Both the position numbers and the translations under genes were made by a program. This document shows, piece after piece, positions 15,414 through 42,929 of a stretch of DNA of 44,914 nt (the stretch's first letter is position 1; every line of letters starts with the position of its first letter). The notes under the pieces are model-generated. The model was not told the origin of the DNA and did not search any database. It saw nothing but the letters and a program-made list of their open reading frames with translations. The stretch comes from a virus (taxonomy: Duplodnaviria > Caudoviricetes). The stretch is taken from IMG/VR virus record IMGVR_UViG_3300037044_000223, positions 1 to 44,914 of that record. One strand, written 5' to 3'.

Positions 15414-15432
15414 GGTTGTTCTCCTTAAGAAA

Positions 15433-16516: not shown

Positions 16517-16531
16517 CGGTATTCCTCTTTA

Positions 16532-17844: not shown

Positions 17845-17850
17845 AATAAA

Positions 17851-17917
17851 AGGGTGCAGGTAATAGGGTACAGGGTGCAGGTTTTTCCTGTCCCCTGATA
17901 ACTGCCCCCTGATACCT
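17851..17917. repeat. Heptamer repeat palindrome (AGGGTRC / CCTGWYC)
   Basis: 7-nt periodic purine arm followed by a complementary arm. Confidence 0.7.
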
Positions 17918-17922
17918 TTCTT

Positions 17923-18930: not shown

Positions 18931-18948
18931 TTTCGTACTCCTTTTTTT

Positions 18949-19047
18949 GTAACGGGTGACGGGTAACGAGTGACGGGTGACGGGTAACGGACGATAAGCT
19001 TGTCACTGCTTTTAAAACCTGTCACTCGTCACTTGTCACCTGTCACT
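18949..19047. repeat. Heptamer tandem-repeat palindrome (GTRACGR x6 / YTGTCAC)
   Basis: Six direct 7-mers followed by inverted copies. Confidence 0.85.
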
Positions 19048-19050
19048 GAT

Positions 19051-19962
19051 TTATACATCTGTCCTGGTAACAATCCCCGCGTTCGCCAGTTGAACCAGCG
19101 CGGCAGCCTTTTGGGCATCCGAAGCGCCTGTCGGCCAGGTCAGATAATCAGCAACGATTTGCGCATCACGGACGATTGCAACAGCCTGTCTGTCTGGGTT
19201 ATAAGCCGATGGGTTGGCTCCAATTGTGCAGATATTGACCTGGGCTGTCGCATTCAGATTTTCCGACTGGAATGTTCCGACCTGATTATCCAGGATCAAA
19301 ACTCCGGCGGCGGTTCCGGCTGTCCATGTCCCGGAGGTAAGCGTCAATGACACCACCTGCGCTGTTGCGCCGCTGGTTTCGCCGGTCACGACCATTCCAG
19401 GTTGTAATTCAGCGGTGCCACCGGAGGTGTAGGCAACTTGTTTCTGGGTCGAATCATTTGTGTCAGCTCCGGCAGTCAGTATGCCGTAAGCATCCTCAGA
19501 CCCATCGATCCCGGTAAGGTTAAGCTCCCGGACTTTCCCGGAACCCGCCGGTACCGTAATGGTGAAAGTGTCACCGAGGGCAAAGTCCGTGGCGCCATCG
19601 GTCAGGGTGAAATTGATCGCCGGATTGGAATAAGCGCCCATCACGGCATCCGGTAATGCTTCGCCATCCGGGTCCCGGACCGAAAAAATCCCCCCATTGG
19701 CAGCCACTCCGACGCATCGCAGGGTATAAACGCCAACTTTGGTTTTGGCGCCGCCGGTCACTGAAACGCAGGTTCCGGTTCCGGTATTTGTCCCGGCAGT
19801 TCCGGTCGTGGGAACAGATCCGGTTTTAATCTTTCCGATAACAGACCCCATGACAAGGTCCTGTCCGGCCAATACAGTGACCTGCTCGCGGGAGTGATAG
19901 TTTTCCATTTCCCATTTAAGCAAATCGTTGAGGTAATTCCCTTCAATTAATACAGTCGGCAT
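19051..19962 (-). CDS. Head decoration protein (gpD-like) with internal insertions
   Basis: EG.YL.DLLKWE..NYHSRE.VTV N-terminus and LTWP.GA..AQK.AAL.QL...GIV.R C-terminus. Confidence 0.85.
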   Translation of the reverse strand: MPTVLIEGNYLNDLLKWEMENYHSREQVTVLAGQDLVMGSVIGKIKTGSVPTTGTAGTNTGTGTCVSVTGGAKTKVGVYTLRCVGVAANGGIFSVRDPDGEALPDAVMGAYSNPAINFTLTDGATDFALGDTFTITVPAGSGKVRELNLTGIDGSEDAYGILTAGADTNDSTQKQVAYTSGGTAELQPGMVVTGETSGATAQVVSLTLTSGTWTAGTAAGVLILDNQVGTFQSENLNATAQVNICTIGANPSAYNPDRQAVAIVRDAQIVADYLTWPTGASDAQKAAALVQLANAGIVTRTDV

Positions 19963-19992
19963 GTTCGTTCTCCTTATTGTTCTTTTAAATAA

Positions 19993-20094
19993 AGGGTGCA
20001 GGTATCAGGAGGCAGGGTGCAGGAAAAAGGTGCAGCCCGCTGTCTTATCAGTTACCTGCCCCCTGCCCCCTGCACCCTGTTACCTGTCCCCTGC
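19993..20094. repeat. Heptamer repeat palindrome overlapping the S49 3' end
   Basis: agggtgc/aggtatc/aggaggc arm and cctgccc/cctgcac/cctgtta arm. Confidence 0.7.
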
Positions 20095-21326
20095 TTTTCA
20101 GCCCTCTTTTTCGCATCTTCCAGAAGCGGGTTGGCTTCACCAGTGGAAAGTGGCCCAACCGTGGATATAATCGGTGCTTTTTCTGCAGCCTTGGCTTTGG
20201 CGTCCAGAATAGCGCTTTTCGCCTCATCGAGCGTCAGCCCGTCACGGATTATGGCGCCGGCCAGTTCAGGCATTCCGGCCAAGTCGCAAATTTCCACGAT
20301 CTCTCCGGCAGTCGATGTCGCACTGCCGGTGTCAGCGGTGTCAGGCGGATCGATCACCAGTGTCGGCTCTATCAAGCGCGCCTCGATCCCTTCGAGCATC
20401 TTTTTCACTTCAGACATGCTTTCCGCCAATGCCTGGTAAATGAAATCCTTTACTTCATTCAAATTCATAGCCATATCTCCTTTGCTTGAACTCATTTTTG
20501 TAACGATATCCCTTACCGACATAGTGCCATCCGCCAAACCGGCCTCTACAGCGGCAGCGCCCATATAAAAGCCAGCCTGTGTGGCAATCACCGCCGCCTG
20601 TGTCATGCTTCTGTTTCGCGCTACGACAGCAGTGAGCATGTCGTAAAGCTTATCGACGTGGGCTTGCAGCACGTCCCTGCCATCCGCTTTCAACGGCTCG
20701 TGCGGGTTGAAATCATTTTTATGATCACCGGCGAAAATGGGCGTGTACCGTACTCCCAGGTTCTTGTCGTAACCGCTTTGGTCCGTATGAATTGCGATGA
20801 CACCGATAGACCCGACTTGCGCGGTTCTGGAGAGATAGACTTCATCCGCCGCGGAAGCTATCGCGTAAGCAGCCGAAAAAGCGGCTTCATCAGCAATGGC
20901 AATGATGGGCTTGGCTCCCCTTGCATGGTAGATTTCATCTACCAAATCAAAAAGGCCCGCGACTTCGCCGCCTGGGGAATCTATAAGAAACAGCACACTG
21001 GTGGTGCGTTCATCAGCCATTGCCGCCCGGAAACTGTCGCGGATATCCAAATATGAGGTAGTCCACCAACTGTATGCGCGATAAGTCAGCCCGCCAGAAA
21101 TCTCGATTAGGGCAATGCCGTCAATGATTGCGTACCCTTCAGCCGCATAAACAACCTCATTTTCCGAGTTGTCGGCCAGTATCTGTAATCTCACAATGCT
21201 TTCGCGGGGCGTGTCCGAATCTACGGGCGCAATACCCGCCGTTTTTGCGGAAAGTATTTCATCAACAGATTGCGGTGCCACCATGAGCGACGTGTTAAAC
21301 AGTCTGGTCGGTATTTCCACTGGCAT
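20052..21326 (-). CDS. S49 family prohead protease / scaffold (gpC-like)
   Basis: IDSPGGEVAG, AFSAAYAIASAA and TAQVGSIGV motifs; ATG 21326 with RBS GGAGG. Confidence 0.92.
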   Translation of the reverse strand: MPVEIPTRLFNTSLMVAPQSVDEILSAKTAGIAPVDSDTPRESIVRLQILADNSENEVVYAAEGYAIIDGIALIEISGGLTYRAYSWWTTSYLDIRDSFRAAMADERTTSVLFLIDSPGGEVAGLFDLVDEIYHARGAKPIIAIADEAAFSAAYAIASAADEVYLSRTAQVGSIGVIAIHTDQSGYDKNLGVRYTPIFAGDHKNDFNPHEPLKADGRDVLQAHVDKLYDMLTAVVARNRSMTQAAVIATQAGFYMGAAAVEAGLADGTMSVRDIVTKMSSSKGDMAMNLNEVKDFIYQALAESMSEVKKMLEGIEARLIEPTLVIDPPDTADTGSATSTAGEIVEICDLAGMPELAGAIIRDGLTLDEAKSAILDAKAKAAEKAPIISTVGPLSTGEANPLLEDAKKRAEKQGTGNRVQGAGGR

Positions 21327-22782
21327 TTCCTCCTGTTGCTCCCATCGATTTCCGTGCGTCCGAATCAAACACAAGGCCGGCCGCATCCGCCCGCTCATTA
21401 TCCGCCATGATTTCATCCTCAAGCGCTTCAACGTCCAATCCCCGCTCAGCCACCTCTTGTGTCCGGGAAGAAAACCCGGAGCGGACAAGACCGGTGGACG
21501 CCTTCAAGTCCTTAAGGGGATCAACCCACGGCCAGCCGTCAATCGTCCATTTGATCCTCATGTACGATTTTGGGTCCTTTGCATATCCGGGCAAAAACAT
21601 GGCATTCGATAACGCAACCTGGGAAAGCCAGTACCTGGCGACCGGCCGGCATATCTGATATGCCATGACATTGAAAATGAACTGCTTGCATTGGCGTTGA
21701 AATTCGAGATTGCCGGCCCGGATAGAGGAATAATTGACTTCGGACAGATCCCCGGTGAACTTCTCATAGGTCAATCCTCCCAATCCTCTGGCGACCCTGC
21801 GTTCCTGATGCTTGACAAAACAATCGTAATTCCCGCCGACATCCGCCGGTTCCGAAAACGTGACGGAATGCCCAGGCGCAAGCGTGGTAAACGTGCCAGG
21901 CTGCATATTGTAAACGGGTGTGTCGGTTTCGTCCTTTTCCTTCTTTTCCCCAAACTGCGGCGGCATAAAGTCTTCTTCAGGAGGTTGGGTGACAAACCCT
22001 CCGAACATGGCCGCCGTTTTTTTGCGCGTCAATTCGGCATCGTTAAACTGATTCAGATCGTGCATGGTCAGGATCAGCGAGGTCAGCCAGGGCCGGCCCC
22101 GCTGCTGCCCGGGGCGAAGCGGCTGGAATGCATGAAGTATTTCAGTGGCTGATATCCGGACTCGGTCAAATTGATTCTGGATTGTCATAAACGACTCTCC
22201 GGGGTGTTCCCGGTACATCCAGTACGCCTTGCGTTGACCAGTCTTGTCAAACTCGATCCCCATGCGAATTTCGTTGCCGTTGGGGGCAATTGTGTTATAG
22301 GTTTCATCGAGGTGGTCCGATTCAAGGACCTGGAGTTGCAGCGGCACTGAAAGTCCGCTGCCCGGGCGTTTCGGGCAAAACCGGATAAACACTTCTCCGG
22401 ATTCAATGATTGACCGGGCAATGAGCGCCTGAAGTCCGTAAAAATCAAATAGCCCGTCAGCGTCCGCTTCCTGGGTCCAGTCCGACCAGAGTTGCTGCAA
22501 CGCTTTTTTGAGTTTGGAATTGGAAAGCTGCCACCGGGGGGAGATCCCCATTCCGACGATATTGGACACCAGGCAATCAAGGGCTCCGGATATCTGAGGA
22601 TCATTGCGCGACAGCTCGCGAGACCGGGCGCGAAGGTTCCCAAGCGAGGAAAAAAGCGTACTGTTCGGTCCGGCTGTTGATAATCCCCACCTGTACATTC
22701 TCCGGCCGGTTCCGGAACCCTCGTAGTCACTATAGGCCCGGATTTTTCGTCCTTGACTGTCCAGTATCTTCAGAAAGGTCAT
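21295..22782 (-). CDS. Lambda-family portal protein (gpB-like)
   Basis: LRARSREL.RND, LQVLESDHL, GDLS.VNYSSIRAG and WVDPLKD motifs. Confidence 0.95.
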   Translation of the reverse strand: MTFLKILDSQGRKIRAYSDYEGSGTGRRMYRWGLSTAGPNSTLFSSLGNLRARSRELSRNDPQISGALDCLVSNIVGMGISPRWQLSNSKLKKALQQLWSDWTQEADADGLFDFYGLQALIARSIIESGEVFIRFCPKRPGSGLSVPLQLQVLESDHLDETYNTIAPNGNEIRMGIEFDKTGQRKAYWMYREHPGESFMTIQNQFDRVRISATEILHAFQPLRPGQQRGRPWLTSLILTMHDLNQFNDAELTRKKTAAMFGGFVTQPPEEDFMPPQFGEKKEKDETDTPVYNMQPGTFTTLAPGHSVTFSEPADVGGNYDCFVKHQERRVARGLGGLTYEKFTGDLSEVNYSSIRAGNLEFQRQCKQFIFNVMAYQICRPVARYWLSQVALSNAMFLPGYAKDPKSYMRIKWTIDGWPWVDPLKDLKASTGLVRSGFSSRTQEVAERGLDVEALEDEIMADNERADAAGLVFDSDARKSMGATGGNASGNTDQTV

Positions 22783-23015
22783 TAGACCCCCTTGCTCGTT
22801 GAGATTCGGAAATACCGCGACCTGTTATTCAGTGCGTTTATCTTCGCGATGAGGCTGGACTTGTAATCCTGTAATTCTCCAAGCTTGGCTTGACCGTATT
22901 CAGCCGAACGCTCGCCGTTCGAAATGCGGATAACGCGCTCGCCGGCCATCAACTTCGCGATGGCTTCATCTACAGCCACCAGTAATGTGCTTAATTCAGT
23001 TAGTGTTTGTGCCAT
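22782..23015 (-). CDS. Head-to-tail joining protein W (gpW-like)
   Basis: 77 aa before portal; AIAKLMAGERV..IS.GERS.EY. Confidence 0.85.
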   Translation of the reverse strand: MAQTLTELSTLLVAVDEAIAKLMAGERVIRISNGERSAEYGQAKLGELQDYKSSLIAKINALNNRSRYFRISTSKGV

Positions 23016-23092: not shown

Positions 23093-24216
23093 TTAAAATG
23101 CAGGGGAAAAATGGGGAAAGGGTTCCGGCAAGGGGGGCGTGCAGAAAGCTCCGCATAAATCACAATGGGTGGCATGGGAACGCTTCTCACAAGTGAAATG
23201 GGGGAGTGAAAAAGCGTGTTTAGAATGGTGAATAAGGGGTATCTGGGGGAGTGATGCAAGTGGAGCACCTGTATGAATTTGAATGAGTGGAAAGGACCCA
23301 TTTTTGATGTGAAAAGAGACCGAAATGACGAAAAAAGCAGAAAAAAAATTCATGAAAATGATTGAAAAATGAGTATGAAAGTAGATGGTGAAAGGTGATG
23401 ATGTTGACGAGGGCCGGAAATGAAGTATTGAATCTCGAAGTGAATAATGTGACAGAAAAGAACAGCGCTTGCCGGGAAGGAAGCAGGCGTCACGCCCCTT
23501 GCAAAAAAGCCGCAAGGGCCGCGCCGCTTGGTCATGTGTGTGCATACCCAATATCTGCGGGCGGATAAAAATCAGTTTGATGGTGACAGCCTGGACATGA
23601 GGGGCCTTGAATGTTCTTTGGTTGTGTCGCGCCTGGGAGGATGCAGGCTGGACGTGAGGAGCAGGCGTCACGCCCCTTGCAAAAAAGCCGCAAGGGTCGT
23701 GCCGCTTGTTCGTGGGTTCGCGTACCCGATATCTGCGGGCGGATAAAAATCAGTTTGATGGTGACAGCCTGGACATGAGGGGCCTTGAATGTTCTTTGGT
23801 TGGTGCGCGACGGGGGGGCTGGCTGAACGTGAGGAGCCGGCGTCACGCCCCTTGCAAAACAGCAAGGGTCGCGCCGCTGGGCCTTTGGTTGCCACTCCGT
23901 CATTTGCTCCAGGTGTCGCCTCCGGCTCCATCCTGAAAGGATAAAAGCATTTGATATTTGATGGTGCCGCTCGACGTGCAGTGCGGGCGTCACGCCCTTT
24001 GCAAAAAGGCAAAGGGCGCGCCGCTACCTCTATGGTAGTTGCGCCCCGAAACAGCAAAAGCAACAGCAACTGCAACAGCACCCGTGTGGTGGTGGTTTGT
24101 GTTGTTTCGTTTCGCCACTAGCGCCCCCGCGCACGTGCCGTGGTATTAGTAGTCTTAGTGGTACTGGTGCATTTGGTATTGGTGGTGGTATTGGCACTAT
24201 GTATTTTGATGACATT

Positions 24217-24311
24217 GGGCGTTCCGGCTTCGCCGTCGGGTGTCTTCCGGCTCCGCTTCGCTCCGGTCCCGCCAAAAAGCCGGCGGGACTTCCCTTCAGC
24301 CCCCCTAACGC
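24217..24311 (-). ncRNA. Flavo-1-like structured element, copy 1
   Basis: Minus strand GCGTTAGGG...GAAG...CCCGAC-hairpin-GGAACGCCC matches my recollection of the Flavo-1 motif architecture; not verified by search. Confidence 0.5.
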
Positions 24312-27300
24312 TCGCGGGCCGGTGCGGTTATCGGATTCGTGCCCGCGCTCCACATGGGGTGGTTTTAAGGGCGTGACAACGTTTCGCGTGGTGCTGTTTC
24401 GGCCGGTCACTCCCCAAAAGCGGTCGTGACCGGCCTCAATTCCATTTTCCTGAGAGCGCCACGGAAAAGCCCAGACGCCACGTGAGGTGCCGTTCAGGCG
24501 GACACTCCGCTGCGCTACGTGACCGCCTTCAAGTTCACGATCGGGGAACGCAACGGAAAAGCACGCATGCCATGTGTGGTGCTGGCCGGCGCTCCCCAAA
24601 AAGCCGGGGAGCGCCTAGGCGACGACCTTTTCAACCTGGACGAATAAACAAAAGCCGCAAGCGCCACGGCCTACGCGCTCCCTGCAAAAAAACGCAGGGA
24701 GCGCTCCGGCGGTGCAGTGCAGCCGGTCACTTCGCAAGGGCCTACGTGACCGGCTGCAAGGCCACGATCGGGGTATGCCACGGAGAAAAACAAAAGCCGC
24801 ATGCCATGTTTCGTGCAGACCGGCGCTCCCTGCAAGGGCCAGGGAGCGCCTAGTAGACGACCTTTTCAATCTGGACGGAAAAGCAATAAGGAGGCGCCGG
24901 ACACTCCGCTGCGCTACGTGACCGGCTTCGACATCATTTGATAAAAAGCCGCCATGCCACGTTCGGTGCTGACCGCCGCTCCCTGCAAAGGCCAGGGAGC
25001 GGCTAGGCGACGACCTTTTTAGCCGGGACGAAAAAAAGCCGCTGGGTCACTGACGGTAACGACCGGCGTGTCCGGACAAAAAGCTGCCCGGCCACACCTC
25101 GACCACTTTTGGCGAAGCACATTCATTCAAAGCGCCAGGAGTCGCACGGCTATGCAAAATTGAAATGGTTTTGCTGGGCCGCGCTCCGTCATTATTTGAT
25201 AAAAGCAACGGAACAAGGAAGTCGGGCGGCCACATCACAGTTGTATTGGCTGTTCAGCGGCCGCCCTCCATCTTTATCTGATAATGCCCACCCACCACCC
25301 ACAGCGGATGGCGCGGCAGCCGGGGCGGATGCTCCGCGCTGAAAATGCTGCCTCCGCACCCGCCCCGACAGCCGCTTGACTTATTTGATAAAAGCGGGAG
25401 CTGTCCGGACGTTGGGTGCATGTGGTCCGCTCCCTAAAAGCAAGGGAGCGGACCACAGACGACCTATTGAGGGAACGCAGCAAAAAAAGCAGGCTTGCTT
25501 CGCAAGATCAAGAAGGACGTGGAGTGCACGCCTACGCGCTCCCCAAAAGCAGGGAGCGCTCCGGAGACGACCTATTGAGGCGCTCAAACGAAAAGAAAAA
25601 CAGCAGACTACCCAGCCTGGTGCTGGCCGGCGCTCCCCAAAAAACCGAGGAGCGCCTAGTAGACGACCTTTTCAATCTGGGCGAGAAAACAAAAGCCACA
25701 AGCGCCACGGCCTACGCGCTCCCTGCAAAAAGCGCAGGGAGCGCTCCGGCGGTGCAGTGCAGCCGATCACTCAGCAAAAGCCTACGTGACCGGCTGCAAG
25801 GCCACGATCGGGGTATGCCACGGAAAAACAAATGTCGCATGCCATGTTTCGTGCAAACCGGCGCTCCCTGCAAGGGCCAGGGAGCGCCTAGTAGACGACC
25901 TTTTCAACCTGGGCGAGAAAACAAAAGCCGCAAGCACCACGGCCTACGCGCTCCCTGCAAAAAGCGCAGGGAGCGCTCCGGCTGTGCAGTGCAGCCGGTC
26001 ACTTCGCAAGAGCCTACGTGACCGGCTGCAAGTCCACTATCGGGGAATGCCACGGAAAAACAAAAGTCGCATGCCACGTTCAGCGTTGACCGCCGCTCCC
26101 TGCAAGGGCCAGGGAGCGGCTAGGCGGCGACCTTTTCAGCCTGGTCGAAAAAACAAAAGCACGCTGAGTCACTGACGGTGCCAACCGGCGCGGCCGGACA
26201 AAAATCTGCCCGGCCACACCTCGACATCTTTCGGCGAAACGCATTCATTCAAAGCGCCAGGAGTCGCACGGTCTAGGCAAAATTGGAATGGTTTTGCTGA
26301 GGCCGCGCTCCGTCATTATTTGATAATGCCCACCCACCACCCACAACGGATGACGCGGCAGCCGATGCGGACGCTCCGCGGCTGAAAAATGCCGCCTCCG
26401 CACCCGCCCCGACAGCCGCTGAATCAATTTGATAAAAGCGGGAGCATTCCGGACATGTGGCGCAGTGCAACCCGGTCACTCCGCAAGAGCCTACGTGACC
26501 GGGTTGCAAGTCCATGTGGGGAACAACACGGGTGCGGGTCAGTCCGTCCGGTGTTGGCCGCCGCTCCCTGTAAAAGCCAGGGAGCGGCTAGGCGACGTTC
26601 AGTGCAATGCGAAAAAAAAAAGCTGAATCCCGGGTGTCAGAGCGCAGGGCCGGTCACTCCCAACTGGTCGTGACCGGCCCTGAGTTCGCGTAAGGTTAAT
26701 AAAACAGCCGCACTTTGCCCGTTCCGTACAGCCGTACCGCACCTCAAACTGCCGGGGAGCGGTACGAAGACGCATTATCGGGGAACACCGAGTTTAAAAC
26801 ACGTACCAGTGCCACGGGCCTCCGCGCACCCCAAACTGCCGGGGAGCGCTCCGGCTGTGCAGTTCGGCCCTTCACAAAAAGCCGGGGAGCGACACGTAGG
26901 CGAACTATCGGAAAAACCTGGACGAAAAACAGCGGTGCAGACCGACGTTCGGTTCTGATAGCCGCTCCCCAAAGGGCCGGGGAGGGCTAGGCGACGACCT
27001 GTGTGACGCATTCATTCAAAACGCGGAAGGAAAGGGGTTAGGATGGCCACTGTTTGGACGTCCAGTGCTGCCGTAACGCACCCCAAAAAGCCGGGGAGCG
27101 TTACGGAGGCGACCTATTGGGGAGCGCTTCGACTGTGCAGAGTTCGGCCGGTCACTTCACAAGTGCCTTCGTGACCGGCCTCAAAACCACGTGGGGAGAA
27201 AAGGGGTCATCACACCCTGGACGTGAGGAGCCGGCGTACCGCACCCCAAACTGCCGGGGAGCGGTACGCAATCGACCTTTCGTCGCATGGAAAAAACGTG

Positions 27301-28194
27301 AAACGCCGTAGTCCGTGCTGACCGGCGCTCCCTGCAAAAGCCAGGGAGCGCCTATCTACGACCAGTGAGATGCCAACTAGAAAAACCGCAGGACAACGGG
27401 CCTGAGCGCTCCCCAAAAAAACCGGGGAGCGCTCAGGCTGTGCAGAAACCAACGACCGGTGTAGCGCCACGGGGAAAAGAGCGGTTTTGACGTGAGGTGC
27501 TCGCGGCACGGCCCTTGCAAAAAGGCAACGGCCGCGCCGCCGGGAAGTGATGCGCAAGGCCACGATCTGCAAGCGGATAAAAAGTCAGTCTGATCCCCCG
27601 CCTGTTAATATGGGTAGCATGTTCTTTTGTGAGCTGCTGCCCGGCCGCATAAGGCCCTGGGGCAAGTCGCTCCGTTCGGCACGGCTGATAAGAGCTCTTA
27701 TCAGCCGTGGCTTTTTGTCATGCAGGCTGCAAAAACAGCAGCCTGCCCGCCAAAAACCTGCCCTCACTCCGCTAGACATAACACGCATTATGTCTCCTTG
27801 CCCCAGGGACTTATGCGTCCTCTTGCCCACTCCGCACAATCTTTCTACCAGAACGACCGGCCGCCCCCAGGGGCTATCAGCGGAATTCTACCTTTAAAAG
27901 GATAAAAGCATTGATATTTGATGGTGGCGCCTGAACATGAGCGCACGCGGTGCGCCCCTTGCAAAAAACCGCAAAAGGCGCGCCGCTCGACGCGCTTTGT
28001 TTCGAGCCACGGAAAAGCAAATGCAAATGCCTGCTGCTGGTCGTTCAGGTTCATGTTGGCGTTTTCAGCCACTAGTGCCCCCGCTAGGGTACTGAGATTC
28101 TGGATATAAATATGGATCAGGTGGTTGATGTGGTATTGGTGGTGGGGTTATATGTTACGCAGCTATGTATTATGGTCATACAGCAAAATGAGAC

Positions 28195-28306
28195 GGGCGT
28201 TTCGGCAGGGCAAAAAGCGCACCCTGCCGTCGGGTGTCTTCCGGCTCCGCTTCGCTCCGGTCCCGCCAAAACAGCCGGCGGGACTTTCCTCCAGCCCCCC
28301 TAACGC
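28195..28306 (-). ncRNA. Flavo-1-like structured element, copy 2
   Basis: Near-identical to 24217-24311 with a longer variable stem (cggcaggg...ccctgccg). Confidence 0.5.
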
Positions 28307-31300
28307 TCGCGGGCAGGTGCCGCTATCGGATTCGTGCCCGCGCTCCACGTGACCGGGACGTACGGTGTGCTGCTTCCGCCTCCCGTTCCGGCAGGCCTTC
28401 ACGGGAGACGGAAGCAGTGGCACTATCCGGAAGGTCCCTGACATAACTGCCTCCCGCCGGGTAAAAAAACCCCCGGCGGTAAGACCTGGCATCCGGTGAG
28501 TTGCAGAAGTCTCCCGTTCAGCAAGCTTTCACAGGAGACTTCTGCAATGGCACTATTGGGGAAACTCGACGTAAACTGTCTCCCGCCGGGAGAAAAGCAC
28601 CCGACGGTAAGACCGGGACGTGCGGTGCAGTTCGGCCCGTCACTCCGCAAGGGCCTGCGTGACGGGCCTCAAGTCCAATATCCTGGAACGCCTCGAAAAA
28701 GCGTGCATGCCACGTGTGGTGCTGACCGGCGCTCCCCAAAAAGCCAGGGAGCGCCTAGTAGACGACCTTTTCAACCTGGACGAATAAACAAAAGTCGCAA
28801 GCGCCACGGCCTACGCGCTCCCTGCAAAAAAACGCAGGGAGCGCTCCGGCGGTGCAGTGCAGCCGGTCACTCCGCAAGGGCCTACGTGACCGGCTGCAAG
28901 GCCACGATCGGAGTATGCCACGGAAAAACAAAAGCCGCATGCCATGTTTCGTGCAGACCGGCGCTCCCTGCAAGGGCCGGGGAGCGGCTAGGCGACGACC
29001 TGTGCGACGCATTCATTCAAAACGCAGAAGGAAAGGGGTTAGGATGGCCACTGTTTGGACGTCCAATGCTGCCGTAACGCACCCCAAAAAGCCGGGGAGC
29101 GTTACGGATGCGACCTATCGAGGTACGCCAAGAAGAACAGCCGCCAGGTCCACGGCCTACGTGCACCCCAAAAAGCCGGGGAGCGCTCCGGCTGTGCAGT
29201 TCAGCCCGTCACAAAAAACCGTGACGGACCTCAAGTCCACATGGGGGAAAGAGCGAAAAAAACAGCCGAACCTTGGGCGTGGGGAACTGGTAGTCCGCTC
29301 CCTGCAAAAGCCAGGGAGCGGACTACAGACGACCTATTGAGGCGCTCAAACGAAAAGAAAAACAGCAGACTCCCCAGCCAGGAGCAGACCGGCGCTCCCC
29401 AAAAAGCCGGGGAGCGCCTAGGCGACGACCTTTTTGGCGCCACGAAAAAGAAATGGAGGCCGGTCACTCCCAAAAAACGGTCGTGACCGGCCAGCCATAA
29501 TCAGCGGATAAAAGCATTTTTTCGATATTACCCACCCACCACCCCGTCTTATTTTCGGCACGTGCAGAGCCATGCTCCGGGAACCTCGCGAAAAAACTCG
29601 GTACCCGTCTCAGGCGACGGAAGGACCGGGATATAGGTGCTTGAATATGAGGAGTGCGGCGCCGATCACCTGTCGGTCATCGGCGCCGGAGAACGGAAGG
29701 TGGAGAGCGACGAAACTACTGTTTTCCGGCACAATACGAGGCTATCTGCACGCTGGGGGATGCGCCACGGATAGGGGAATTGGCACGTTTTACTAACAAA
29801 GGATTGTTTGAAAAGCGACGGGTTGAGATTCGTGGTGCGCGACGTGGGGTTGTGCGTGTCATGCCCGTTGCAGAAAAGCTCGCAACGGTCACGCCACGGG
29901 GGATGATCGTGCAGTTGGAAAGATCGCATGTGGACGAAAAAACAAGAAAAGGATAACAGCATTATTCGATAATGCCCGCCCACCACCCCAACTGTAAAAA
30001 AAACCTCCGGAAACCCATGAAAAAACCTCCAAAAACCACTACAAAGCGCCTAACGGCGAAGGCCAAAACATAGTGAGAGGTTTTTTGCAGTTGCAAACGA
30101 TTCCTTTGCAACTGCAATGACAAAAACGGAAAAGTGTGAACGTTGGGAGTGTGCTCCGGAAACCTCACAAAAGCCTCAGTATCCGTCGCATGGGTACGAA
30201 AAAAACCGGAGAAAATCAAGACTTGATGAGCTTGCTCCGGGAACCTCGCCGAAAAGCTCGGTACCCGTCGCACGAGACGAAAGGGAAGAACGACGAGAGT
30301 AACAGCAACATCAAGGGCAAAAGCAACTGCAAAAGCAAAAGCAAAAGCAAAAGCGGGATGGCTTTGGTCGTGAGGAGCGTGCTCCGGAAACCTCACAAAA
30401 GCCTCGGTATCCGTCGCATGGGACGAAAAAGCCGGAACGGGGAGCCCGGACGTGGGGAGTGCGGCACCGATCACCTGTCGGTCATCGGTGCCGGTGGACG
30501 GGAGGAAAAGCGCGACAAACAACTTTCATCCGGGGACGGCAAAAGGTTGTCTGGACGTGGAGCGGGACGCGAACAGCGGGGCTGTCTGCACGTTTTACTA
30601 ACAAAGGATTGAATAAAAAGCGACGGGTAGAGGGCCGGGCGCTGGGGAGACGTGGGAAGCTGGTGTCACCCGCATGCAAAAAGAGCATGGGGCGCGCCAC
30701 TGGGGAAGATCGGGATTTAACAGCACGCCTGCGGCGGGCAAGGAAAGGGGTTAGGATGTCTGCTCCTTGCAAGTCCGTTGTGGGGCGGCCGGTCACTTTC
30801 CGTGACTCCCTGCACCAAATCTAGCGGCCGCCGGGTTTCCCATCTGGAAATTTATGCAATTCCCCAACACTTGCTAAAAGGATAAAAAGTCAAATTGAGG
30901 CTGGGGTGTTGTATCGTTCATCCTGTGTTCCAACCTGCCGCGCTATCGCTTGGCTCTTTTTCGGTTTCAAAAAAATAACTGCTCCCTTTTTGTCAAAAGA
31001 TCGGAAGGGGGTTTAGCCGTTATTTTTTCAAAACCTCAAAACTCTAAGCGCTCAAAACTCTTATTGAATCTTTTTCCCCCATGTTTCGTGATGCATGATT
31101 TTTCGGTTCAAAAATACATCCTTAGTCAAAAAGGGTTTTCGGCTGGTCGTCGTTGGGTGTGCTACTGCCGGGTTGCCGGTGTCGGTGGCCAGGTCGCCGG
31201 TCCCAGATCCAGGTGGCATCCGGCGCCCGGCTTCCAGGCTGCCCGGGCTGGGTGTCTGTTCGGGTCCAGGCGCCCGTGCGCCAGGGGTCCCGGTACATAT

Positions 31301-31467: not shown

Positions 31468-31483
31468 TGGCATGCAGCTTGCA
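31468..31483 (+). promoter_or_regulatory. Sigma-54 (-24/-12) promoter
   Basis: TGGCATGCAGCTTGCA fits TGGCACG-N4-TTGCW with correct spacing; AT-rich upstream region; ORFs with RBS follow. Confidence 0.75.
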
Positions 31484-31821: not shown

Positions 31822-32211
31822 ATGCAGCTATCTTTTTTACGTGATTCATTGCCGGCCGGATATGTCCGTTTTTATCCCAATCTTCCCACGGAAATCTTTC
31901 TTGCCCTGGGCGGCGTTCAGGCGCTTGAAAAAGTTGGGGCTCACAATATCCTCAGCAGCCACAATGCCCTGCAAATCGATGTTTGCGCAGTCAATGGCGT
32001 TACCATGATTCATGTCACCCAAAACGTTCACAAGGCATATGATATTTATTTTTATAACAGCAAGGGGGCGTGCGTGTCGTATGCTTATCATGTCTATCAC
32101 CACGAGCTTGCAGGCGTGTTCCGGTCCGGCACCGGGCTTGTTTCTTTCAAGAAAAAGTACATCGGGCTCGATCCGGCCGTTTGCTGCGAAGAAGAGCAGG
32201 CGGTTGCATAG
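31822..32211 (+). CDS. Conserved phage/plasmid hypothetical protein (129 aa)
   Basis: RBS AGGAGGT; I...LGG......GA.N...YDI.F...VY..EL..VF...TGL pattern resembles a widespread small phage protein family. Confidence 0.75.
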   Translation: MQLSFLRDSLPAGYVRFYPNLPTEIFLALGGVQALEKVGAHNILSSHNALQIDVCAVNGVTMIHVTQNVHKAYDIYFYNSKGACVSYAYHVYHHELAGVFRSGTGLVSFKKKYIGLDPAVCCEEEQAVA

Positions 32212-32710: not shown

Positions 32711-32763
32711 AGTGACAAGTGACAAGTGGCCCGTTCCGTCACCCGTCACCCGTCACTTGTCAC
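32711..32763. repeat. Heptamer repeat palindrome (AGTGACA / CCGTCAC)
   Basis: Direct and inverted 7-mers; contains the TGA of the HTH gene. Confidence 0.75.
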
Positions 32764-32939
32764 CCCTTTAGGTTCTTTTTGATGTACTCATCAATGGAGT
32801 CTTTTAAAACACGCAAGCTACGGGGGCCGAGCATGATGGCTTTGAGTTTTCCAGTTTTAATCATATCGTAGATATGGCGCTCGGTGCAGCACAATTCTTG
32901 CGCTGCTTTGCGAATATAGACGAATTTTTCAGCGGTCAT
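32760..32939 (-). CDS. Excisionase-like helix-turn-helix protein
   Basis: AAQELCCTERHIYDMIKTGKLKA..LGPRSLRV; RBS GAGGTG before ATG 32939. Confidence 0.85.
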   Translation of the reverse strand: MTAEKFVYIRKAAQELCCTERHIYDMIKTGKLKAIMLGPRSLRVLKDSIDEYIKKNLKG

Positions 32940-32961: not shown

Positions 32962-34806
32962 TCACTCCTTTTGCCGTTCCAGGTAAGAACATATCACGGA
33001 TATTTTTTTTCTCGGCATTGTCGGCAGCCCAGGTGTAGTTGACTTTGACCTGCCGAGCCACAGGAGACCGGCGCGGATAGCGGCTGCATAGGCGTAAATT
33101 TCAGCATCAAGCGCATCGTTTCGATCCCTTGTTTTCACCCATTCCAGATATGGGAAACCGCCTTTGATATGGGTTTCCATTTTTTCTGCGGTAAGCTGCA
33201 TAAAATATTCGTCTGTTACGCATTCATACCAGTGATAACAGCATGGTCCCGGAACTTTATTGTTTTTCAACCGGCCGTACAGTGTGGATTTCGCGGTATC
33301 GGTTCCGACCGGCCACAATTTGACGCCCCTGGGGATCTGCTTGCCCCTCCAGTTCAAATCTTGTTCGGAGGGTTTTCCTAATACAGGTTTATTGCGTGCG
33401 CGCTCGCCTTTTACGGCAAAAACACGGCTGTCTTTTTTTCGGCAATAGCTGTAAACTTGCTGTGTTTTGTAACCGGAATCAATAGCGACACCGGCCACAG
33501 AGATGACGGCATCATCACACATGAAGTTGTAAGCAATCAAGTCGTCAAGTTGTGATTCCCAGTCGCCGTAGATTTCCCCGTACCAAATGAGCCAGGATTC
33601 TTCACCGACTCCCCATCCGCGGATTACAACAACAATCCGGTTTTCCTGAACGTCAACACCAAACGTAATGAATATGACACCTGGGGGCGGTTTCATCGGC
33701 TCATAGGGTTCACACCTTAACCGGAGGTTTTCCCATTCCGGTTGTTCCCCGGCAACTTCATAAGGTTCGCCGAGTCGGGTATTTACCCAAACCTTCATGG
33801 ACATGGGATCTTTTTTTGCGTCGTTGTATTCCTGAGCGATCTGGCGCCAGGAAACAAAGCCGAGGGGAGACAAAAGGCCGCTGATGTGGTATCCGCGTTT
33901 TGACCGGTTTGGTTGTAGAGGAATCCATTTTCCCTTTTTCAACATCTTGTTTTTGTAATGCTCGTTGATTTTTTCACGACAATTCATGCAAGTGTACCAG
34001 ACATCTGTTACTTCGCCGTTTTCCTCTGTATAATGCAGCCCATGTTCTTCATTGTTCGTGGAGAAGATAAGTATTTGCCGGGTTTCACAGAAAGGGCAGG
34101 GTACGTGGTAATATCGCTGGTCGGATTTCTGGAATTCTTTTTCGATCAGAGATCCGCCTTTTATCGTCGGCGTGCTGATCTTCAGGATTTTTTTCCGGCT
34201 GGAGTAAGTATCGGTCCGGCGCTCGGCCAGGCTTACGGGGCTTCCTTCCCCGCCGATATCCGGTTCAAAGCCGTCGATGTCATCCAGGATCAAGTAACGG
34301 ATAGAAACGTTTCGGAATGCCGATCCGGAATTGCTTCCGGCCAAGTAGAGTGCGCCGCCGACAAAGTTTTTTGCAAGTACGGTGTTTCCGCCGGTGCGGC
34401 TTTTTGACGGGTGGACCTTTGCAGCGATCGAGGGGATGCTTTCGATCATGGGGGCGATACGGTTCCGGCTGTGGCGTTCCGCCAGCTCGACCGTGGGAAG
34501 CATGTACAAAATCGGGCCGGGTGCACAATCAATGATGTAGCCGATAAAGTTATTCGCCACTTCAGACCCGCCAATCTGCGTGGCTTTCATGACGGCGATA
34601 TCGGTTATTTCGGATTCTGAGACCGACAGTGCTTGCATAATTTCCCGCAGATATGGCGTACGCCTTGTGCGGTAGTTACCGGCTTCACGAGAGGCGACGG
34701 AATTCAGGACCCTTTTTTCATCGGCCCATTCGTCAACAGTGGTCAGTGGATCCAGTTCAAGGCCGTCGCAAGCGGCTTGAATAAAAAAAGTGCGGCCGTC
34801 AATCAT
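32962..34806 (-). CDS. terL: Terminase large subunit (GpA family)
   Basis: TPYLREIM, KATQIGGSE, ISTPT, SDQRYYHVPCP.C, GVDVQ and RNDALD motifs. Confidence 0.96.
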   Translation of the reverse strand: MIDGRTFFIQAACDGLELDPLTTVDEWADEKRVLNSVASREAGNYRTRRTPYLREIMQALSVSESEITDIAVMKATQIGGSEVANNFIGYIIDCAPGPILYMLPTVELAERHSRNRIAPMIESIPSIAAKVHPSKSRTGGNTVLAKNFVGGALYLAGSNSGSAFRNVSIRYLILDDIDGFEPDIGGEGSPVSLAERRTDTYSSRKKILKISTPTIKGGSLIEKEFQKSDQRYYHVPCPFCETRQILIFSTNNEEHGLHYTEENGEVTDVWYTCMNCREKINEHYKNKMLKKGKWIPLQPNRSKRGYHISGLLSPLGFVSWRQIAQEYNDAKKDPMSMKVWVNTRLGEPYEVAGEQPEWENLRLRCEPYEPMKPPPGVIFITFGVDVQENRIVVVIRGWGVGEESWLIWYGEIYGDWESQLDDLIAYNFMCDDAVISVAGVAIDSGYKTQQVYSYCRKKDSRVFAVKGERARNKPVLGKPSEQDLNWRGKQIPRGVKLWPVGTDTAKSTLYGRLKNNKVPGPCCYHWYECVTDEYFMQLTAEKMETHIKGGFPYLEWVKTRDRNDALDAEIYAYAAAIRAGLLWLGRSKSTTPGLPTMPRKKISVICSYLERQKE

Positions 34807-34957: not shown

Positions 34958-35603
34958 AGTCATGGTGATTACCCCGGATATGCGTCAGCGCATTTCTGAT
35001 TTCGTTTTCCAGGATGATCCGGACATTCGCCTCTTTTTTTTCGGCTGCAAGCTGGGCGCTTATCCTATCGATGATATTCAGTAAGCTGTCTCGGGTTTTC
35101 CGGTACATTTCAAAGGCGCCTTTTTGGACGTCTTCATCCCGCAACAATTTCCCGGACCGCTCTTCAAAGTCCAATTTTTTCATTTCGGCATTGTACTGTT
35201 CTTTTAACGTCCGAGCCGCGCTGAAGGACATTCCCGCCAACTCAATGGTTTTTGCTGTTTCTGTTCTCTGTCCTCCGTCATCCGTCATCTGCCCTCTGTC
35301 TTCAGTCTTCTGTCCTCTGTCATCTGCCCTCTGGTTTAACCTGGATATCTTGTTTTTAAATCCGCGGGCCTCGGGGTCCGAGTATTTTTTGACATTTTCG
35401 ACAGCGGTATCGATGTCAATCAGGTAATACCGCTGGTTTATTTTCGTAAACGTGTCGCCGAAAGCGCCTTTTTTGTGGAGTTGGGAGACACGTCCCTTAG
35501 TGACGCCGAGCCGTTTTGCAAGATCGGTAAGACTCCCGTATCCCTCCGGCAAAGAAACCAGCTTGCAATCTTTTCGAACCTTGGGGATTTTCTTTTTTTT
35601 CAT
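34956..35603 (-). CDS. terS: Terminase small subunit (Nu1-like)
   Basis: N-terminal HTH (LAKRLGVTKGRVSQL); ARTLKEQY.A...KLDFEERSGKL; RDSLLNI.DRISAQLAA; upstream of terL. Confidence 0.85.
   Translation of the reverse strand: MKKKKIPKVRKDCKLVSLPEGYGSLTDLAKRLGVTKGRVSQLHKKGAFGDTFTKINQRYYLIDIDTAVENVKKYSDPEARGFKNKISRLNQRADDRGQKTEDRGQMTDDGGQRTETAKTIELAGMSFSAARTLKEQYNAEMKKLDFEERSGKLLRDEDVQKGAFEMYRKTRDSLLNIIDRISAQLAAEKKEANVRIILENEIRNALTHIRGNHHD
35258..35333. repeat. Heptamer repeats inside the terS coding sequence
   Basis: (t/c)ctgtc(c/a/t)-type 7-mers encoding DDRGQKTEDRGQMTDDGGQRTE. Confidence 0.75.
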
Positions 35604-39954: not shown

Positions 39955-41352
39955 TTAAAACTTTTCATACCCATCGGGCATGCCGTCAGGGATCCCGGTG
40001 TTTCCGTCTATTTGGGCTTCAACCATTGCCATCATGCAAGACAGAATTCTTTCACAGTCCTCAACTGTATTCGGCAAGGTTCCGAGATGTTTTTTCGCCG
40101 CCGCGTATTCATTGGGGAACTCAGCCTTTCGGGTCATCAGGTTTTTATACTGGGGGGTGTAACTCAGGGGCAGAGTGCTTTCAGTTTTTTCCGGCGCCGG
40201 TGTTTCCGGTGCGGTCACTTGAGAGCCGGAAAGCGGCCAGGGTTGTGCCGGGTACAATTTTACCCACTTTTCAATGGCTTCCATCAGCATGGTTTGCGGA
40301 CAATGCCGGAATAAATCAAGGTTCTGGAAAACAAAAGTTGAAAAACCAGGGCCTTTCAGGTTTATGTACCGGGTCCGGAAATCGCTCCATACCACGGCAT
40401 CACTCGGAGGGCCCTGGTGGTCAGACACTTTTGCCGGCCTGCTTGCCGGATCCGGAGCTGGTGCTGGAGCAGGAGCCGTCGTTTCCGGGGCGGTAGTAAT
40501 CTCTTTTTCGCTCGCCGGTTCTTTTTTTGCCGAGGCTTGCTTCGACAGCCAGGCTTCAAACGCTTTGATAAATACACTCCAGTTCCCAACTGCCCGGTTT
40601 TTAAGATCGTCAACGCTGGCGCCATTGGCTTTTGCCGTAAGAACAACAAAGTCAATAAGCTTTTCCTGGCCCTCCGGATACTGCTCTGCAGCAAGAATAT
40701 CAAAAGCGTTTTCGTCAATACTTCCGCTTCCCGACAATTCAGTTTCTGCCGGGGCTTTTAACTGATACTGTTCATGCCCGTCATTCCCGACTGTAGATTC
40801 CAGAACAATCGCATCGCTGTTTTCTTCAATGGTACGGATTCCCTTCAAAAAATCCGCGAACTGATCCCGCATGGCGAAATTGCGTGCTTTAAATTGCATC
40901 ATACGATTCGTCCATCTTTTCCACGGGCTTTCGGGTTTCACCTGATCAAAACCGGCTTCTAACGCCTCAGCCCACGAATAGGAACCGGTAACCGCTTCAC
41001 AGCCTTTTCGTTTCACCCGACAGAAGTAAGTCCAGTCGGGTTTTTTTCGCTCACCTTCCGACCATTCCTTGAATTCTTCAAGCAGTCCGGAAGACCGGAC
41101 AATCGCCAGTGCCGCATCGCCGTAAATACCAGGCCTCCCATTTATGACTGCAATGTTCTGAACGCTCGCCATTGGGGACAACCCGATTTCCGCGCCCATT
41201 TGTATGGCCACGAAAACTGCTTCCGGGGTTTCGATCGATTTCGGCATCAACCCGGATGCTGCCATGATTTTGGCGAGCCGGATTGCTTCTTCAATTCCCC
41301 TCGGGGTTATCCCGAAAGATCGACTTTGTACCGCTGGTAAACTTGTTTCCAT
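39955..41352 (-). CDS. recT: RecT-family single-strand annealing protein with long C-terminal extension
   Basis: VAIQMGAEIGLSPM.SVQNIAVINGRP.IYGD, PW....RMMQ.KAR.FA.RD.FAD.LKG; RBS GGAGGT. Confidence 0.85.
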   Translation of the reverse strand: METSLPAVQSRSFGITPRGIEEAIRLAKIMAASGLMPKSIETPEAVFVAIQMGAEIGLSPMASVQNIAVINGRPGIYGDAALAIVRSSGLLEEFKEWSEGERKKPDWTYFCRVKRKGCEAVTGSYSWAEALEAGFDQVKPESPWKRWTNRMMQFKARNFAMRDQFADFLKGIRTIEENSDAIVLESTVGNDGHEQYQLKAPAETELSGSGSIDENAFDILAAEQYPEGQEKLIDFVVLTAKANGASVDDLKNRAVGNWSVFIKAFEAWLSKQASAKKEPASEKEITTAPETTAPAPAPAPDPASRPAKVSDHQGPPSDAVVWSDFRTRYINLKGPGFSTFVFQNLDLFRHCPQTMLMEAIEKWVKLYPAQPWPLSGSQVTAPETPAPEKTESTLPLSYTPQYKNLMTRKAEFPNEYAAAKKHLGTLPNTVEDCERILSCMMAMVEAQIDGNTGIPDGMPDGYEKF

Positions 41353-41373
41353 AACCCACCTCCTTTATGCTTT

Positions 41374-41524
41374 GATGAAGTTGAAAAAAAGGCAAAATCA
41401 CACGGCTTCGAAAAAAGTACGCAGGCAAGGCGCGCAAAGCCTGAGGAGTGAGGCGTACTTATCGTACGCCGCAACGACGAAGGATGAAGCGCAACGCAGC
41501 ATCCGGACTTTTTACGAAGCCGTC
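41374..41524. mobile_element. MITE-like element, copy 3 (151 bp)
   Basis: Perfect 7-bp flanking duplication ATGCTTT (41367-41373 and 41525-41531); same core as copies 1 and 2. Confidence 0.88.
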
Positions 41525-42299
41525 ATGCTTTGATGATTGCTGATTCAGTTTCATAGATTCGAATTCCCGGAATTTCCCTGATACCGCTCTTAACAGCCTG
41601 GTTGACAGCCACCTTATCAACCACAAGATATTTCGGAGGGATCAGACTGATGTCCAAAACATCCCAAACCCAGTCTTTCCGGAGATGCACGGAAGACCCG
41701 GTTTCCGAGCGAAACACCTTTTGAACCGGGACCACTGGAGCAACCACAATAGGGGCTATTACTTCGGGCTCCATCGGCGCGGCCGGTTCTCCCATTTCAA
41801 AGGCTTTCTTCGCCTCGGCTTCCCGCTGCACGTTCAGTGCCGCTGCCCGTTCATTCAGTTCCCGCTGGACCTTTGCAGCCTCTAATCGAGCGCGTTCCTG
41901 CGCTTCACGCTGTTCCATTTGGACTTTGGATATGCGAGCCAGGATGCCGACATTTAATTTCTGGTGGATCTCATCGAGAGTGTTTGTAAAAACCTTCACA
42001 AAACTGTTGACGGTTTTCACGAATTCCCCCGGCGCCTCGATAACTTCTTTGCGCTTTTTCTCGATTGCCGTTGCCAGTTTTTTTGCCTGACCAACCATTG
42101 TAATCGCTTCATTTTGGCTGTCTTCATCTACAACAACATGTGCCATTGCCTGGGCCTTCATCCGCTCGATTTCAGGCAGGTACATCCGCCGCAACACGCG
42201 ACACGCCTGATCTGCATCATTGTATCCAATTAAAACCGATGGGATATGTACAGCCGCCGGTACTTCTTCAGCCTCATTCACTGCTGCCATAAAATCCAT
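41523..42299 (-). CDS. Conserved phage coiled-coil protein (recombination module)
   Basis: 258 aa; C-terminal W.W.V.D.S.IP.KYL.VD......AVK.GIREIPGIRIYE motif. Confidence 0.75.
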   Translation of the reverse strand: MDFMAAVNEAEEVPAAVHIPSVLIGYNDADQACRVLRRMYLPEIERMKAQAMAHVVVDEDSQNEAITMVGQAKKLATAIEKKRKEVIEAPGEFVKTVNSFVKVFTNTLDEIHQKLNVGILARISKVQMEQREAQERARLEAAKVQRELNERAAALNVQREAEAKKAFEMGEPAAPMEPEVIAPIVVAPVVPVQKVFRSETGSSVHLRKDWVWDVLDISLIPPKYLVVDKVAVNQAVKSGIREIPGIRIYETESAIIKA

Positions 42300-42321
42300 A
42301 TTACCTCCTTGTATCGGGAAA

Positions 42322-42395
42322 AGGGGGCAGGGGGCAGGCTTCAGGGTGCAGGTTTTTTCTGCTCCCTTCCCCCCGTCACTCGTTACTCGTCACCT
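42322..42395. repeat. Heptamer repeats (AGGGGGC / CGTCACT)
   Basis: 7-nt periodic tracts; contain the TGA of the nuclease gene. Confidence 0.65.
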
Positions 42396-42929
42396 TCCCT
42401 TAAAGTACCGGTATGCCCCCAACGCATTCAGAAATGCCGCCCAAGGTTCGCCGTCTACATCAATCTCAGTCGCTATTGCAGGACTGCCATTTCTCCGAAG
42501 ACGAACGGCCAACCCTCGCCGAACATCATATCCGTACTTTCGCGCAAGATGCGCATAAGCAGCGATTTGGGGATACCATGTACGGGAAATACTCATGGGC
42601 GTTTTGTAATCGACAATCGTCAAACCATGGTCGCCTGGGATATAAACAACAGCGTCAGGATGCCCCATGTATCCAAGGTGTGGATCCGCAAACTCTTCCT
42701 CAACCGCAACAAATTCAGGCGCCGCCATTTCCGCCCAATTCAAGAAGCTGTCAAAAAAAGGTCCATCTCCGGGCCAAAGCGCACAATCTGCCCAAAGCCC
42801 CTTGGCATAAATCGCGCACGCTGCATGGACCCTTGATCCCCGATCGGCGGCCCGTTGCAAAACTTCAGGACGGATCTTCGAGAAGTCAGAAAATGGCGAC
42901 AACACTCTTGTCACCGATGGGAGCTTCAT
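42390..42929 (-). CDS. PD-(D/E)XK nuclease (phage exonuclease)
   Basis: LPSVTRVL, RGSRVH, GY.GHPD....IVDYKT and QIAAY motifs. Confidence 0.88.
   Translation of the reverse strand: MKLPSVTRVLSPFSDFSKIRPEVLQRAADRGSRVHAACAIYAKGLWADCALWPGDGPFFDSFLNWAEMAAPEFVAVEEEFADPHLGYMGHPDAVVYIPGDHGLTIVDYKTPMSISRTWYPQIAAYAHLARKYGYDVRRGLAVRLRRNGSPAIATEIDVDGEPWAAFLNALGAYRYFKGR

Follow-up and report, generated by a model that had tools for sequence, protein, structure and literature searches.

A conserved, strand-polarised mosaic of hairpin modules beside a cos-like site in a lambda-like provirus

The DNA analysed here, a stretch of 44,914 nucleotides (nt) that we refer to as the window, is the complete virus record IMGVR_UViG_3300037044_000223, which is classed as a provirus (~65% complete) and is a lambda-like provirus from a deltaproteobacterial clade. 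The 10 kb that separate its terminase large subunit gene (terL) from its gpW head-tail adaptor gene contain a pair of small genes and a ~7.4-kb stretch that is non-coding (~23480..30900, minus strand). This stretch, hereafter the array, is a mosaic of ~61 hairpin modules from about a dozen families. The array is under constraint and strand-polarised, and the fold that appears to be selected is that of the minus strand, which is the sense of nearly all genes in this genome of lambda-like type. The selected form is probably DNA, and we tentatively propose that it caps one end of the phage chromosome. Dense coding is typical of phages, which makes it surprising that up to ~1/7 of a chromosome is given over to strand-polarised hairpins under selection beside cos. 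The literature library covered, which is incomplete, yielded no description of an array of this kind.

Modules were mapped by a combination of profiles and patterns, and the family letters A-K are labels of this analysis. There are 23 A-type modules in addition to members of families B1, B2, B3, C, D, E, F, G, H, I, J and K, with T-rich linkers connecting them. A strand-neutral scan of the array detects 40 hairpins with at least 8 Watson-Crick pairs, as compared to 2-10 when the sequence is dinucleotide-shuffled (8 shuffles) and to 12 and 4 for a pair of coding stretches of equal length, and many A modules form perfect stems of 11-15 base pairs (bp). Within the array no gene with PHROG or Pfam support was called, no Rfam family matches at its gathering score (two sub-threshold matches are to generic stem-loops), and a terminator scan gives 29 sites versus 15.3 expected, mostly fragments of module stems. 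The array also carries self-duplications, both tandem (178 and 232 bp) and long-range, and from its sequence it appears to have grown through local and long-range duplications. As a separate observation, an unpaired AT-rich linker ending in TTTTATCC is found 42:0 on the gene-sense strand across arrays. This linker occurs in the window at 27905-27935, 23944-23975 and 29511-29530 (minus strand) and persists in the most distant related arrays (loci L008 and L032). TTATC(A/C) is biased 15:1 in the window array, and the TTTTATCC-type linker is a candidate protein or nicking site.

Searches with terL and the portal gave 14 and 22 viral loci, respectively, and motif scans added metagenome and genome loci. 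Homologous arrays of ~3-8 kb lie between terL and gpW, all oriented alike (L030, for example, has matches 227:2 in favour of the same strand), and their ends are conserved while their middles are reshuffled among relatives. The most widely conserved module is C. Against L008 and L032, terL is 73% identical; at four-fold sites, the window agrees with L008 at 71 of 205 (35%) in terL and with L032 at 73 of 191 in the portal gene. Modules shared with L008 and L032, as seen in BLAST segments that were chosen by similarity, are 71-93% identical across 40-150 nt. Judged from sequence, this degree of module conservation versus near-saturated synonymous sites would indicate either purifying selection or recent exchange. 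The modules are not spread in host chromosomes, as two host genomes give 41 matches, of which 39 fall in prophage arrays; the module C pattern occurs in 1 of 401 genomes of the phylum with all 7 copies inside arrays. No array match was found in the more distant L010/L035, L031, L033, L034 and L025. Two of the array-less relatives have ArdC anti-restriction genes, which are typical of plasmid leading regions, in the terL-gpW slot (L034 6377-7441 and L035 7198-8064), and in L035 this slot also has a duplicated promoter-like stretch. Additionally, L003 (9290-11870) and L006 (10670-13220) contain a second replication module, by eye an initiator and a DnaB-like helicase, between terL and the array, and these inserts also hold toxin-antitoxin or insertion sequence (IS) genes.

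Strand polarity is evident at several levels. When modules are folded individually, the better fold is that of the minus strand in 52 of 61 with RNA parameters and in 47 of 61 with DNA parameters, and once composition is allowed for it is still the better one in 14 of the 19 non-redundant types (p = 0.009 and 0.003). With blind 120-nt windows the two strands do not differ in energy (38/62 with RNA and 35/62 with DNA parameters). Runs of T outnumber runs of A 124:24, and the ratio of GCGNAGC to its complement is 135:11 across 90.7 kb of arrays, 10:1 in the window and 5:5 in 31 kb of coding DNA. An initial annotation of the window, made from sequence by a model, had described GTA(G)/G(G/A)A internal loops, tandem GA/GA pairs, GC-GNA-GC mini-hairpins and T-rich loops on the minus strand. 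Internal loops of GNA/GNA type, triloops of cGNAg type and T-rich loops are confirmed as features of that strand. Among 13 G-N-A sites, comprising both triloops and internal loops, the extra states number 3 at G, 14 at N and 2 at A (p = 4e-4), in a count that includes perfected forms (which work against the result) and some sites of shared ancestry, and whose patterns miss L008. With G and A fixed and N free, these sites show the pattern that characterises sheared G.A pairing in the gene-sense strand. The annotation had also read plus-strand A-C mismatches as G-T wobbles on the minus strand. Those that it named near 27503 and 27151 are indeed present, but a general wobble asymmetry was not confirmed. 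Sporadic G.T and A.C variant types are symmetric, at 9:8 and at 41:31 (p = 0.29), the latter a rough count in which family A has no seed and families F, G and K are partly mis-registered; only fixed positions lean toward G.T (7:1 in the 19 non-redundant module types, p = 0.07).

Compensatory substitutions had been another ground on which the initial annotation argued for selection. The paired swaps that it reported are real to within 1-5 nt (24822 versus 24975; 29657 versus 30462; 29574/30234 versus 30153/30381), and the first of these, as well as the wobble at 27151, lies in the core of A and B modules. The feature is larger than the annotated span of 24821..30493, which covers its middle, and extends over ~23480-30900. 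In two families, module alignments show more covariation than column shuffles do. Family B1 has 8 double-changed cells versus 1.0 under shuffling (0/500 shuffles), with just 2 pairs varying, a count that 41 of 500 shuffles reach, and family C has 12 versus 2.2 (0/500) in an alignment of 39 sequences (including one stray) drawn from the 63 distinct C sequences. Because module copies are related, these shuffle counts are not readable as probabilities. Family A has 83 distinct outer-arm pairs, of which 25 pair perfectly, with 23 different left-arm 5-mers. Imperfect arms occur beside "perfected" palindromes that resemble one arm copied onto the other, and one array piece of 18 (L006) has the interior of module H in reverse orientation between the outer arms. 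Covariation alone is therefore no proof of selection, since arm-to-arm copying could also yield it, and the swaps, although real, are a weak argument given that the perfected palindromes and the L006 inversion suit arm copying. Support for selection acting on a strand-specific minus-strand fold comes instead from the G-N-A constraint, the better fold in 14 of 19 module types, the kept orientation and the module conservation.

The cos context, which the initial annotation lacked, points to DNA. The final copy of module C in the window ends 184 bp ahead of a heptamer that has the sequence of lambda cosQ and whose sole other minus-strand copy in the window is inside terL. A cosN-like stretch starts 30 nt downstream of this heptamer, which is lambda's offset, and cleavage is predicted to occur there. 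cosQ is reported to be needed for packaging termination and to be highly conserved (PMC4669245). Among 35 loci examined, 33 have a C module and 21 have a cos-like site located 60-672 bp past the last C module, with this distance being 156-217 bp in 16 of the 21; the L032 and L027 groups have a variant cosQ heptamer. The other 12 C-module loci have no cos-like site in the sequence available, with 8 of them ending within 500 bp and the remaining 4, which were not inspected one by one, extending 0.7-2 kb. In L031, which has no array, the motif (4384) is ahead of terS as in lambda. A lone C module and a cos-like site with no phage gene match in the sequence available are present in L134 (9638-9900) and L135 (5774-6040), and these may be packageable islands or prophage remnants.

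Several further observations concern the cos-like site itself. Relative to the terminase genes, cos is relocated, lying between terL and gpW in this clade and before terS in L031 and lambda. Conservation stops ~45-50 bp past cosN, suggesting a short cosB. DNA just past cos is a cargo hotspot (L016 4200-9700, L018 2800-9100, L025 1-2400, L047 7600-9000, L134 and L135) with reverse-oriented genes that have attC-like palindromes and, by eye, BREX-like and restriction-like genes. A conserved element before gpW in this hotspot may be an integron-type attachment site.

Because terminase is predicted to cut at the cos-like site, the array would constitute the right, last-packaged end of the chromosome. 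The gene-sense strand would bear the 3' terminus at this end, so that unwinding or 5'-to-3' resection, by host RecBCD/AddAB or by the exonuclease of the phage itself, would expose the strand that folds. Once exposed, this strand would collapse into dozens of highly stable DNA hairpins, resistant to single-strand nucleases and poorly bound by SSB. The array would thereby serve as an expendable, fast-shuffling, non-coding buffer between the end and the genes, protecting them up to the point at which the ends join or recombine. Template switching and fold-back at this end would also explain the duplicated, perfected and inverted modules. A role as folded single-stranded DNA (ssDNA) that caps the free right end, acting as a fold-back cap or decoy, is thus our working proposal for the function of the array, and we put it forward tentatively. 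A more specific version appears less probable than the general one. It pictures a telomere-like, protein-free cap in which 3-8 kb of self-renewing DNA would fold once the free end is unwound, stall or divert host end-processing and defence, and offer only repetitive, expendable sequence to CRISPR capture.

Free phage ends are where RecBCD/AddAB and Gabija-type defences act. RecBCD is reported to enter lambda at the right end only (PMC5041463), and Gabija sensitivity is reported to be set by injected cos ends with or without RecBCD (bioRxiv 10.1101/2025.08.30.673261). The RecT-like annealase and PD-(D/E)XK exonuclease genes of the window (39955..42929) constitute a phage end-resection system. 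Post-Chi processing and phage exonuclease-annealase systems both leave the 3'-ended strand single, and CRISPR spacer capture is concentrated at free phage DNA ends. To our knowledge, end protection in known cases is carried out by proteins, and protection by DNA structure, if true, would be a new counter-defence principle.

A number of points weigh against this account. The likeness of modules in distant phages could reflect recent exchange, and after flank clustering GC-GNA-GC is present in 13 contexts versus 7 for its complement, which implies few independent origins. Module H of L008 is without both of its G-N-A loops, that of L006 is inverted, and the symmetry of sporadic mismatches described above belongs here as well. 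The comparison of DNA with RNA folding energies, which had been suggested as a check, favours the minus strand per module with either parameter set but does not separate DNA from RNA, as the DNA set gives no GNA bonus. Neither sheared G.A loops nor T.T (U.U) pairs are exclusive to DNA, as RNA has both. The match between the folded strand and the strand exposed by resection had a 1-in-2 chance a priori, and five Chi-like words, modelled on known Chi sequences that may not be those of the host, show no bias to the 3'-ended strand. Cohesive ends normally join fast, which leaves little time for resection. Finally, cleavage at the cos-like site, the single-stranded state and the protection of the end are all predictions from sequence.

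Whether the selected fold is one of DNA or of RNA was assessed largely from its motif vocabulary. Only GNA loops are reported to form GCNNNGC DNA mini-hairpins, whose stability follows A>G>C>T at the middle base, which resist exonuclease as well as S1/P1 and are poorly bound by SSB, and whose RNA counterpart melts far lower (PMC13037366). Array GCGNAGC motifs have a fixed G and A, a free N, C-G closure and placement on a single strand, as in these mini-hairpins, and their middle-base counts for A, G, C and T (48, 38, 21 and 1, not independent counts) follow the reported melting order. In contrast, the gene-sense strand of the arrays (87 kb) contains no cUUCGg and only 4 contexts of GNRA with a stem of at least 4 bp. 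This abundance of GNA triloops with almost no GNRA or UUCG argues for ssDNA more than for a transcript. The minus strand is in the late-transcript sense, as initially annotated, only when this is taken as an orientation, and its motif set fits DNA better than RNA. The alternative, implied by the initial annotation, is a long modular non-coding RNA, read in the gene sense, that would act as a protein sponge or decoy for, e.g., host RNA-binding or defence proteins. Its case is built on the better folding of the minus strand with RNA parameters and past the composition control, on family C pair 10-41 being G-U, G-C or A-U in 39 of 39 sequences, on terS-terL being directed into the array, and on the resemblance of GUA/GAA loops to loop-E submotifs. 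In RNA run X1, contigs of relatives also extend over 23 of 30 bins, but these are shallow, unstranded and no deeper than over the head genes (6% of words; contigs mostly <95% identical; uncovered bins uninformative). Besides the scarcity of GNRA and cUUCGg and the reported DNA specialty of GNA triloops (PMC13037366), this alternative must contend with sporadic G-U pairs that are not in excess, though RNA helices would tolerate them, with a commonest B1 loop that is GTA/GGA and not GTA/GAA, with the null result in Rfam and with a freely reshuffled module order. We consider such an RNA rather unlikely; if the array were nonetheless RNA, it would be among the longest modular phage non-coding RNAs described. 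Overall, single-stranded or extruded DNA is the probable form under selection, an RNA fold is considerably less probable, and the absence of any selected fold is unlikely.

The last of these possibilities corresponds to an array that is a self-amplifying by-product, in which palindromes near a free end duplicate and copy their arms by template switching, with the strand bias tracing back to a small set of founder hairpins. This agrees with the perfected palindromes, whose arms show 23 different 5-mers, with inverted module interiors, the tandem 178- and 232-bp and long-range duplications, few independent GNA contexts and symmetric sporadic mismatches, and with the existence of related phages that do without an array. 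However, the limited room in a capsid makes ~7.4 kb of dispensable DNA costly, and several modules, as well as the order at either end of the array, have persisted despite near-saturated synonymous sites. Copying alone also does not predict internal loops that hold G and A and vary N, the modules have not spread in host chromosomes, and neither a transposase nor a reverse transcriptase was found in the incomplete phage records searched. On this balance, a mere by-product is improbable. Slightly less probable still are cruciforms, with hairpins that extrude from supercoiled duplex circles, driven by the very stable strand as at N4 early promoters, and that together with the repeated linker motif would create places near cos where terminase, topoisomerase or a nucleoid protein could dock or brake. 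N4 promoters are reported to use GCGGAGC mini-hairpins (PMC13037366), and the perfect stems of many A modules, the 42:0 linker that persists in L008 and L032, the lone C module kept with cos in two genomes and the HU-like protein encoded by the phage would suit such a role. Extrusion would nevertheless turn the internal loops and G.T pairs into poor mismatches on the other arm, 87 kb of arrays contain 1 match to the IHF consensus and 2 DnaA boxes, and lambda is reported to need just ~200 bp of cos (PMC4669245). A quite doubtful reading sees in the modules a redundant set of single-strand initiation signals, which would bring primase or a primosome onto the displaced strand in rolling-circle replication. 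GNA-type mini-hairpins are reported at the priming sites of G4, St-1, alpha3 and RSF1010 ssiA (PMC13037366), and the strand polarity matches what such signals need. However, one or two sites suffice in known systems, which leaves dozens in 7 kb by cos unexplained, and GenBank phages and PLSDB plasmids have no match beyond one 52-nt piece.

The features of the window are collected in Table 1. Head genes also include an S49 protease, a decoration protein and capsid E, and further right there is a replication initiator and an HU-like protein in addition to the annealase and exonuclease genes. The small protein of 129 amino acids (aa) that is encoded between terL and the array has a predicted structure (pLDDT 77) for which Foldseek gave no match at E<=0.001 and for which the best VIA-align Z was 6.2. 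As structure searches gave no clear fold match, this protein was not linked to the array. Small proteins that resemble phrog_9437 recur in the terL-gpW gap (L008 14953-16965; L034 8728-9042), with L008 having 3-4 such open reading frames (ORFs) in tandem. Promoter boxes that we take to be Sigma54-like (31468-31483, plus strand) are located past an AT-rich stretch and upstream of the 129-aa ORF, face away from the array, and are kept in relatives. Elsewhere in the window, two adjoining B12-binding radical SAM genes (DUF4070; 3364-6280, minus strand) are situated amid lysis and tail genes and are unusual cargo in a lambdoid phage. Tandem repeats of 7 bp fill many intergenic gaps (10735-20094, 32712-32765 and 35260-35333), one of them within terS. 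ARAGORN found nothing usable in the window.

Table 1. Positions of array components, the cos-like site and neighbouring genes in the window
Feature	Position	Strand	Remarks
Four C modules, terminal run	23483..24026	-	Fixed G.T and G.A mismatches, T loop
F module	24219..24329	-	Overlapping GC-GAA-GC and GC-GGA-GC mini-hairpins
F module, second copy	28212-28325		
Core of shuffled A and B modules	24488..29498	-	GNA/GNA internal loops, GNA triloops, T.T mismatches
H module	27660..27803	-	Single-copy multibranch domain
D and E modules	29570..30498	-	Carry swaps 29657/30462 and 29574/30234 vs 30153/30381
Lambda-type cos-like site	23250..23305	-	cosQ heptamer 23299-23293; dyad-symmetric cosN-like stretch
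Terminase large subunit (terL), gpA type	32962..34806	-	Upstream of array
Small helix-turn-helix (HTH) gene	32760-32939		Beside terL
gpW head-tail adaptor	22782..23015	-	First gene past cos
Portal	21295-22782		Comes after gpW
RecT-like annealase	39955-41352	-	
PD-(D/E)XK exonuclease	42390-42929	-	
Conserved 129-aa ORF	31822..32211	+	Weak phrog_9437 match; directed away from array

Several known classes of element were tried as an identity for the array and set aside. REP/BIME elements form mosaics that are associated with RAYT transposases. An assignment to this class was rejected, as the array modules are not dispersed (39 of 41 matches being in arrays) and a Y1 transposase is absent. PF01797 (Y1) has no match in 4 phage records (65-85% complete), and a comparison of 15 host Y1 loci with the arrays gave a single 16-nt match at chance level. 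As a side observation, contig C42 of host genome G002 has a cluster of six Y1-transposase-like genes (L105, L109, L110, L113, L116 and L118) whose flanks are unrelated to the array. The Ssn/SRM system (NTS, dRS3) was likewise rejected, with 0 matches to the SRM motif on either strand of 27 array pieces. No GIY-YIG gene is present in G000 or G424, and three hosts have one match each, on contigs other than those in which arrays were found. A regex for an integron attC array, with inverse core and core boxes 40-140 nt apart around each unit, matched 0 times in the window array on both strands, retron or reverse transcriptase-linked arrays gave no PF00078 match in the 4 phage records, which are incomplete, and structured RNAs in Rfam (GOLLD, ROOL and ribozymes) gave 0 covariance-model matches at the gathering score.

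Comparison with known systems nonetheless places individual traits of the array. Long structured non-coding prophage stretches with repeated units are known from GOLLD, ROOL and pseudo-ToxI; the array differs from these in having no Rfam match, few GNRA or UNCG loops and a shuffled module order, and in being ten times longer. Like plasmid leading regions with Frpo and ssi sites (PMC11541004), it is structured non-coding DNA near the end that enters the cell, with ArdC in the same slot in two relatives. However, a tailed phage delivers double-stranded DNA, the array is ahead of a small-gene operon and not behind it, and its stems are without promoters shown, so plasmid leading regions can be regarded as an analogy only. 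Structured non-coding DNA near the cell-first end is also a property of the T5 injection-stop region (iss). With lambda (J02459; PMC4669245; PMC5041463) the window phage shares the cosQ heptamer, the 30-nt offset, a dyad-symmetric cosN-like stretch, a gpA-type terminase and a lambda-type portal and capsid. It differs in that cos is between terL and gpW and not before terS and in that the 12-mer is not lambda's, and the right end of lambda has no hairpin array.

The closest likenesses are at the level of the hairpins and of their arrangement. One-strand C-GNA-G triloops with a variable middle base are shared with the GCGNAGC mini-hairpins of the G4, St-1 and alpha3 origins, RSF1010 ssiA and the N4 virion RNA polymerase (vRNAP) promoters, as reported in PMC13037366, but those are single sites with a named enzyme while the array is a repeated mosaic of several kb in a double-stranded DNA phage. 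REP/BIME and the Neisseria NTS/SRM repeats (for NTS/SRM, PMC11893778) resemble it as mosaics of imperfect palindromes and linkers with conserved mismatches and an implied single-strand fold. The array is unlike both in occupying one locus by cos in a single orientation, in not being host-dispersed and in having no SRM motif. The building blocks of the array are known mini-hairpins and its mosaic layout recalls BIME and NIME arrays, while the idea that together they make up a new kind of phage end structure is one that we regard as possible, though rather unlikely.

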